64,000 nt of DNA, from NCBI GenBank assembly GCA_951406725.2, contig OX597837.1, forward strand, positions 43,586,001 to 43,650,000, in the 5' to 3' direction. Shown here one piece after another: positions 61,944 to 63,786 of the stretch (positions within the stretch are counted from its first letter, which is position 1; every line of letters begins with the position of its first letter). The translations under genes were made by a program, and so were the position numbers. This stretch comes from Octopus vulgaris (taxonomy: Eukaryota). Below the pieces are notes generated by a model, which saw only the letters and a program-made list of their open reading frames with translations, was not told where the DNA came from and searched no databases.

Positions 61944-61984
<41 letters not shown>

Positions 61985-61985
<1 letters not shown>

Positions 61986-62600
61986 TAAATTAGAGACAAA
62001 ACCACTATTAGGCAAATCAAACAATGAAAGACTTAAGCCAATACATATGATTAATTTATATTATTTAAATATGTAACAATTATTAAAAAATATAATTAAT
62101 ATCCACTACGATCGTTTCCTGTCTGCTGTCATCAATTTTTTGAGTCGCAGTCATTCATCAGGTGGTTTCAAAATCTAAAATATAATCAATATTTTTAAGA
62201 TATAAATAATATATATAATCTAAAATAATAATTTACTTATAATAAACTCTATTATTAAATATGATTATATCGAAATCGACTATAATGTTAAATATTAACT
62301 TTAATTTATAAGGTAGAAAACCCATATTCTAATATCAATATTAGTCTATATCTAATTACATAAATATTTAAAATGACTAATATATATAAATTATCAATGA
62401 AAATATATATAAATATTATAATCAAGATCTAAAATAATCTCTATAAACAATTGTATATAATAAAAACCTAATATATTTAATTTTTCATAAACTAACTTAA
62501 ACTGACTTTCGAAATCTTATGTAAAATACTTATAGAAATATTCAATTCTTAGTAATATAGTATTAAATAAATACTATAAGTACTATAAACATAATTATGA
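61985..62600 (-). mobile_element. AT-rich Penelope-like terminal unit between (TA)n tracts
   Basis: Contains an HHR. Its terminus aattagagacaaaaccactatta...caaacaatga is homologous to 4960-5015. Confidence 0.55.
62103..62165 (-). ncRNA. Type I hammerhead ribozyme motif with palindromic stem III
   Basis: Minus strand CCAC-CTGATGA-ATGACTGC...GCAGACAG-GAAAC-GATC-GTA-GTGG. Confidence 0.8.
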
Positions 62601-62723: not shown

Positions 62724-63061
62724 GTGTGTGCGTGTGTGCATGCGTGTGTGTGTATGTACATATATATATAATTATAATAAGGGCATAGAAAGAAACCAAT
62801 GCTGAGAAAAAGGCGCTAAATCGTATCACCACTCAAGAAGTCACAAACACGTGTTGAATTCGAAACAACAAGCCAACGGTAATTACTGTTAAAACAGATA
62901 GCCCTGTATCAGCTAACTTCCGGACCTGCCCAATAGTGTTTCTGCCTTCAGCAGGACATACATAGAGAATAAATGAAATATTTATACATACCCACAGGAA
63001 AGCAAAGTTCAAAGCCGCAAATACACGTAAATACCCCAGTTATCTTGGAAAAAATTTCGTA

Positions 63062-63718
63062 GCCGGCATTTCAATTCGAAAATTTTCCAGAAAATTGATC
63101 AATAATTAATAATAATATCAAAGGGTAATCAGAAATATTTGAAATTTCCATTACCAATGGCCTAGCGTGTAAACAGTTTAGTCAATAGACTATATGTTAT
63201 TCATATAAATACAGTGTACATTTAAACACATAAGAGGTATCAGTCATTGGATTCCTTGCACGCTAGAGAGAACAGTTAAATTCCAAACCACTATTAAAGA
63301 TAAAATTTCAGATATTTCTGATTATCCTTTGATATTATTAATTATTGATAAGTTTTCTGGAAAATTTTCGAATTGAAAAGCCGGCATTTTATTTATTGCC
63401 AACAAGGAGCTGCGCTTGCGCGGTGAATTTGAAAAATTACAATGTATAAGCACGAGGCATATACTGGATTGCCTAGTGTATATATATTTAATCTAAGGTG
63501 TACCTGCTGAAGAAAACTTCGCATAGCGAATTATTTTATTCGATAAAAAATATCTGAAACCATTGGTCCAGGAGTTAGATGGTAAATGATTTTATTTTTC
63601 AATCCTTTCGAAATTTTATCCCCAATAGTGGTTTGGAATTTAACTGTCCTCTCTAGCGTGCAAGGAATCATATGATGGATACCTCTTATGTGTTTAAATG
63701 TACATTGTATTTATATGA

Positions 63719-63721
<3 letters not shown>
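63062..63721. repeat. Two interleaved inverted repeat pairs
   Basis: A 63062-63147 versus A' 63303-63385; B 63198-63309 versus B' 63610-63721. Both pairs are high identity by eye. Confidence 0.9.
63503..63572 (+). ncRNA. Type I hammerhead ribozyme motif with branched stem II
   Basis: CCTG-CTGAAGA-[TTCGC/GCGAA and TTTTAT/ATAAAA hairpins]-GAAAC-CATTG-GTC-CAGG. The base of stem II is imperfect. Confidence 0.7.

Positions 63722-63786
<65 letters not shown>

Follow-up and report, generated by a model that had tools for sequence, protein, structure and literature searches.

An inverted hammerhead ribozyme (HHR) repeat in the genome of Octopus vulgaris is most probably the outcome of one head-to-head insertion of a non-coding repeat family, here called F1, likely carried out by the enzyme of a Penelope-like element (PLE), with the left arm of the insertion fused, probably by deletion, to an older copy of a second family, F2. 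F1 has a definite family structure, with two fixed 3' ends, scattered 5' ends and frequent head-to-head joins, and the arms of an insertion are of common descent. The locus is an ordinary one, and its architecture is already known from published PLE insertions. It was analyzed within a 64,000-nt stretch of contig OX597837.1 (the window), which is AT-rich and dense in microsatellites, and its repeats were searched for in the whole genome (2.8 Gb in 227 contigs). The features discussed below are, in window coordinates:

61981..62600, minus strand: F3 hammerhead repeat, a separate insertion from a younger family, with its motif running from 62165 to 62103.
62768..63063, minus strand: F2 copy, 5'-truncated, about 295 nt, ending at the standard F2 3' end beside a TA/CA microsatellite.
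62903..62955, minus strand: degenerate F2 hammerhead motif with a palindrome-type stem III, placed by family alignment.
63062..63063, minus strand: F1/F2 join with a 2-nt overlap, known from this locus only.
63062..63309, minus strand: left (inverted) F1 arm, monomer positions 308-468 followed by 1-83 (B', spacer, A').
63148..63197, minus strand: spacer S, 50 nt, the normal B-to-A link of tandem F1.
63303..63309, no strand assigned: head-to-head junction of the F1 arms, a 7-nt overlap from arm mapping.
63303..63721, plus strand: right F1 arm, monomer positions 1-419, about 93% identical to the family majority sequence.
63503..63572, plus strand: F1 type I hammerhead motif, with all core letters there and a predicted cut after 63568.
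63721, plus strand: 3' end of the right F1 arm, equal to the first fixed 3' site of the F1 family.
63722..63785, plus strand: (GATA)n followed by (GT)n microsatellite, flanking the right 3' end.

Self-comparison bore out the block orders that an initial annotation had read from the letters: on the plus strand, A (63303-63385), the hammerhead and B (63610-63721) follow one another across 63303-63721, and the minus strand reads B'-spacer-A' from 63309 down to 63062. B' (63198-63309, minus) is 92% identical to B over 112 nt, A' (63062-63147, minus; 86 nt) is 91% identical to A, and seven nucleotides at the inversion point, AAATTTC (63303-63309), are common to both arms. Because the arm blocks are interleaved, in the order rcA, rcB, A, B, an A hairpin and a B hairpin are mutually exclusive; alternative long hairpins, as had been suggested, do arise from this arrangement, and the B hairpin prevails in the predicted fold (z -13.5). 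The 3' part of spacer S is predicted to pair with B. The F3 repeat stands only 170 nt left of the F2 copy, showing that elements of this kind gather at these microsatellites. A genome search with F3 gave 2037 first-look candidates, the best copies being 97-98% identical; its motif has a palindromic CGATCG stem III, its B-like stretch resembles F1, and inverted arms are visible in some copies.

By its sequence, F1 is a dispersed non-coding hammerhead repeat present in many hundreds of copies. The plus-strand copy used as a query gave 2665 first-look candidates, and among the best 40 scored the main copies were 84-91% identical; exact F1 motifs matched 130 and 817 times, and the reversed controls 0 times. 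The monomer is 468 nt long (A 1-83, hammerhead 201-270, B 308-419, spacer 420-468), and two HHR pattern matches lie 469 nt apart. Two sets of loci were compared, 120 distinct F1 loci chosen by similarity or hammerhead motif (set 1) and 83 further loci chosen only by a motif in B (set 2), after repeat fetches of one locus and near-identical duplicated loci (L214) had been dropped; the counts that follow thus come from copies partly chosen by similarity or exact motif, and arm ends are BLAST limits, blurred in AT-rich DNA.

Read against this family, B preceding A on the minus strand is the ordinary tandem junction of F1, the B-spacer-A link being found in 80 of 120 loci of set 1 and 47 of 83 of set 2, which answers the question of whether other copies carry the B'-to-A' junction. 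The further suggestion of an insertion with inversion, as in PLEs, was likewise upheld: head-to-head inversions occur in 64/120 and 46/83 loci, with a short overlap at 38 of the 64 joins in set 1, and tail-to-tail joins numbered 0 among the 120 and the 83. Arms begin at 5' positions scattered across the whole monomer in both sets, and they end, in 155/201 cases (set 1) and 120/141 cases (set 2), at one of two fixed 3' sites 93 nt apart, the B end and a tail site at about position 43 (33-48) of the next monomer, from where, by eye, they usually run into AT microsatellite. In inverted insertions with two standard ends, one arm lies at each site in 34 of 36 joins of set 1 (p 1e-8) and 29 of 33 of set 2 (p 4e-6), or 63/69 pooled, about half being expected; joins with a non-standard end (28/64 and 14/47) were left out of this test. 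Five arms (L012, L013, L018, L083, L096) end at 341-347, perhaps a minor third start site, and in a minority of F1 loci (L171, L168, L109, L204, L206) near-perfect fold-back joins were seen, with both arms starting from the same monomer position.

The arms also carry the marks of shared descent. In the window they differ at 14 of 186 shared positions (7.5%) and have 4 derived letters in common over these 186 nt (2.2 per 100), a rate that elsewhere is 1.8 within loci and 0.55 between loci. Agreement at 31 diagnostic sites is 87% for inverted arms, 85% for tandem monomers and 56% between loci; since arms and tandem monomers share subfamily letters, each insertion came from one template lineage. 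Arms longer than one monomer make up 66 of 367 and only two (1106 and 1153 nt) exceed two monomers, reaching 2.5; some arms hold two hammerheads, and the window locus has one F1 hammerhead. F1 loci are mostly dispersed pieces under 2.5 monomers, with no long head-to-tail arrays seen among them. The B/spacer helices, whose domain encloses the first fixed 3' site, show compensatory changes in 26 cells versus 11.2 after shuffling (0 of 500 shuffles), in shuffles that, here as for the hammerhead below, ignore the relatedness of copies. At 63198-63240, in the 3' part of B, sequencing run X11 is several-fold deeper than across the hammerhead, suggesting that more subfamilies, or more short copies, carry this 3' piece of B.

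The F1 hammerhead consists, on the plus strand, of CCTG (63503-63506), CTGAAGA (63507-63513), GAAA (63556-63559), CCATTGG, TC and CAGG (63569-63572). An F1 hammerhead descriptor matched the genome 534 times versus 1 match for the reversed control, and an Rfam search at gathering and E-value thresholds gave no hammerhead match at the locus. The F1 majority sequence is predicted to fold into a hammerhead shape, and compensatory changes across subfamilies occur in 12 cells of its helices versus 3.9 shuffled (0 of 500 shuffles); motif and covariation together thus place a putative type I hammerhead in the terminal repeat. The window copy has lost 3 of the 6 basal pairs of stem II, and its predicted fold departs from the hammerhead shape, so this copy is likely damaged and inactive. 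Stem III is a perfect palindrome in many related subfamilies, and the descriptor matches include a subfamily series in which its length varies (6, 8 and 10 letters) and which is palindromic throughout; in the available text of PMC4209133, a palindromic stem III is a hallmark of dimer-type PLE hammerheads.

We propose that an F1 RNA of more than one monomer would be bound through the conserved B/spacer helix by a PLE reverse transcriptase (RT)-endonuclease acting in trans, which would nick both strands of an AT-rich microsatellite. Of the two cDNAs, one would be primed at the end of B and one at the tail site; each would break off at a random point, and their far ends would be joined by short homology, leaving both element 3' ends facing outward; B before A would be an ordinary tandem junction read by the second cDNA, and the hammerhead would trim the precursor RNA, as a dimer, via its palindromic stem III. 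The rule of one end each is consistent with both target strands being primed, each from a start site of its own, and we infer the two-strand mechanism from the in vitro result of PMC11167929, in which, according to the available portions, both strands are cleaved and extended and two internal RT starts define the tail. One feature of the window runs counter to the proposal, namely that the left F1 arm (248 nt of F1) ends at position 83 and not at the tail site (33-48), extending 40 nt beyond the usual tail end, so that an added event is needed. No target duplication or empty site was noticed on inspection of the locus, whose flanks are microsatellites and whose left end is fused to F2.

The template of more than one monomer could have come from monomers cut by the hammerhead and ligated into covalently closed circles, as in the retrozyme model, a route for F1 that we regard as possible though doubtful and that can be combined with PLE-driven insertion as the source of such a template. 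A tandem or circular template of about 450-500 nt had been suggested for the locus; a tandem of the 468-nt hammerhead monomer agrees with this, but the locus itself gives no evidence for an RNA circle. Arms exceeding one or even two monomers and the subfamily letters shared by tandem monomers within an arm are what circles would yield, the majority monomer has a compact predicted fold (z -5.9), internal priming would shorten daughter copies, so that tandems would need regenerating, and circles have been shown for other animal type I hammerhead repeats in the accessible text of PMC7229834. However, tandem genomic masters or template jumps would give the same pattern, long arrays were not seen among the F1 loci, the reverse complement folds equally well (z -6.4), and, in the parts of the respective papers at hand, PLE-type minimal hammerheads cut poorly (PMC4209133) and hammerhead cutting is dispensable for insertion in vitro (PMC11167929). 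Near the predicted cut (after position 266) the excess of 5' ends is at most about twofold, and it is just as large inside stem II. For the interval 267-300, chosen post hoc, set 1 has 24 ends in 1726 nt at risk versus 167 in 26,862 (p 0.0006) and set 2 has no enrichment (p 0.13); the interval 262-280 is enriched in both sets (p 0.02 and 0.001) and 225-240 in set 2 (p 0.0007), where the arms at risk number 65 at position 268 and 57 at position 250. We read the excess near the cut site as unspecific and possibly caused by hairpins.

Inversion might also have arisen by fold-back, with a single cDNA or antisense template priming itself, as proposed in the available text of PMC3846280. Some joins are near-perfect palindromes whose arms start at the same position (L171, L168, L204, L206), and the 7-nt overlap in the window forms the base of the predicted stem, as such self-priming would have it. 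In most joins, however, the start points are unrelated, the inverted arm is not a simple copy, because it often holds sequence absent from the other arm (in the window, the spacer), and fold-back does not predict that the two arms take one fixed end each; we therefore consider it an unlikely origin of the inversion.

The left end of the locus requires a second repeat. The initial annotation took the minus strand beyond A' to be a degenerate hammerhead of the same monomer; past 63062 this strand instead matches F2, which is a separate hammerhead repeat family and appears to be the older one. The annotated parse of the motif, CCTG-CTGAAGG-CA-GAAAC...CAGG ending at 62925, leaves no stem II, whereas the F2 family alignment gives, from 62955 to 62903 on the minus strand, CCTG, CTGAAGG, stem II, GAAG, TTAGCTGA, TA and CAGG, with two changes in the core (A9 to G, and GAAA to GAAG). 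An F2 query gave 43 genome matches. Substitution divergence from the majority sequence is 12.7% for the F2 part and 6.3% for the F1 arms (Fisher p 0.002), and the median family divergences are 11.8% and 5.7%; the F2 age is possibly inflated by the use of one majority sequence for a family with subfamilies, a sequence built without six near-identical duplicated F2 loci. The F2 copies in L041, L042, L045, L046, L050, L053 and L054 have a common flank whose translation we take to be a LINE-like RT fragment, and since the flank is shared, F2 in these loci likely lies inside a larger duplicated unit. In contigs of three sequencing runs, presumed to be RNA, the F2 part is covered at low depth by sequence 100% identical to it, which is uninformative on expression or circles.

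The simplest account of the left end starts from an old F2 copy, beside or into which F1 would subsequently have inserted, the intervening DNA being lost through a deletion that accompanied or followed the insertion. F1 was joined at the 5' side of F2 in 0 of the 28 other F2 loci fetched, a query spanning the join yielded no further instance in the best 40 scored of 221 candidates, and an 18-letter pattern across it matched the genome once, at this locus; a very small family sharing the join may nevertheless exist. On the right side of F1 no leftover F2 sequence was detected. Alternatively, the join could be a template switch within one insertion, synthesis of the left cDNA having set out from an F2 RNA at its 3' end and crossed over to an F1 RNA at position 83. 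F2 and the left F1 arm do lie on the same strand with a 2-nt overlap, the locus terminates on its far left in the standard 3' end of F2, and the two families seem related, having common motifs and 64% global identity (z 2.6 only). A switch of this kind would, however, make both outer ends first-site ends, a pairing found in only 5/69 joins, it would have joined the templates about 24 nt off the homologous position, and it does not sit well with an F2 part about twice as diverged as the F1 arms that has no sister closer than 80% in 40 scored; we judge it improbable.

Much less probable still is that the left arm is one circularly permuted monomer of the same element (B'-spacer-A'-decayed HHR), as was first thought. 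The block order fits, and a hammerhead-like motif lies at about the expected distance, but the sequence past A' is F2 and not F1, the motif carries F2 stems, and the arm begins elsewhere than at the cut site, so that it is 248 nt of F1 plus about 295 nt of F2 and not a permuted unit. The window arms begin at monomer positions 1 and 308, and as 5' starts are scattered over the whole monomer, the apparent permutation is random 5' truncation of a tandem. A local mis-assembly we consider next to impossible, for although the region is rich in microsatellites and none of the sequencing-run contigs compared bridges either junction, so that both are read from the assembly alone, arms 7.5% apart rule out a collapsed duplicate and the same layout recurs in over half of the F1 loci.

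The preferred reading, insertion by a PLE enzyme, places F1 beside several known systems, compared here as far as the available parts of the sources go. Endonuclease-positive PLE insertion units (PMC8557442, PMC3846280, PMC11167929) comprise a pLTR, a partial tandem, an inverted 5' copy and an optional tail. F1 has in common with them 5' truncation, partial tandems, an inverted copy attached head to head, a tail extension confined to one end (63/69 joins), a hammerhead in the repeated end, and flanks that by eye are AT-rich or microsatellite. Unlike them, it is without any ORF, its tail is 93 nt versus 30-40 nt in the published PLEs described there, no partner with the same repeat was found among the PLE families compared, and in the window its left arm continues into a different family. 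The accessible text of PMC3846280 and PMC8557442 describes inverted repeats that carry a tail on one side; in the accessible passages of this literature we came across no tally of how rigidly each arm keeps to its own one of the two sites, and supplements or figures may hold one. The minimal type I PLE hammerheads of PMC4209133, in its available portions, resemble F1 in a 4-bp stem I, a long stem II and a short palindromic stem III for dimers, as well as in many variant families per genome and opposite-strand pairs 100-700 bp apart. The first stem II pair, by contrast, varies in F1 (A-U, G-U, G-C, mismatch) and is a fixed G-C there, and the stem II of F1 appears from its sequence to have a second helix that theirs lack.

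Animal non-LTR retrozymes, as far as PMC7229834 and bioRxiv 10.64898/2026.07.22.740005 could be consulted, likewise consist of non-coding, AT-rich units of a few hundred nt in tandem, each bearing a single type I hammerhead, and the F1 family, too, includes tandem non-coding monomers that each have a predicted one. The F1 monomer measures 468 nt, versus 170-400 nt (PMC7229834) and 51-972 nt (bioRxiv 10.64898/2026.07.22.740005) for those retrozymes, from which F1 differs in being mostly dispersed pieces of less than 2.5 monomers. The same preprint, in its available part, proposes that animal retrozymes are non-autonomous PLE derivatives, a view that F1 fits, in that it would work, by analogy, like a PLE passenger.

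In the search for an autonomous partner, proteins from PLE fragments near F1-type copies led to two large PLE families (14,230 and 14,246 first-look candidates, the best 150 of each scored). Their ends match none of F1, F2 and F3, apart from 1 short F2-like match in 54 loci; comparison of the two families brought up no autonomous RT plus GIY-YIG element that ends in a repeat like F1 or F2, and no PLE ORF was enclosed by widely spaced hammerhead pairs. The first family (L152-L157; e.g. L152:2165-4714) is very abundant and has ORFs of 800-850 codons with an RT domain, a zinc-finger-like linker and a C-terminal endonuclease, and at its 3' end, by eye, a seeming hammerhead variant with a U3-A8 core. 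The second, also abundant (L299-L317), has a long pyrimidine-rich tract after the endonuclease and a hammerhead-like motif of its own.

A candidate signal for recognition by the mobilizing enzyme is the covarying B/spacer helix, and the series of 6-, 8- and 10-letter palindromic stems III is a natural set for studying dimer cleavage. F1 and its sister subfamilies might even be minimal PLE passengers derived from circular hammerhead RNAs, the two target strands being primed in every inverted insertion at the B-end and the tail site, respectively, of the same template, a reading to which we attach little weight; if true, the 63/69 rule would be genome-scale evidence on the inverted-plus-tail products of a dimeric PLE enzyme, and a switch from one ribozyme RNA to a different one could account for the F1/F2 join. 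Its small size, its lack of coding sequence and its many hundreds of copies make F1 a source of clean counts on how PLEs make tandem, inverted and tailed insertions.
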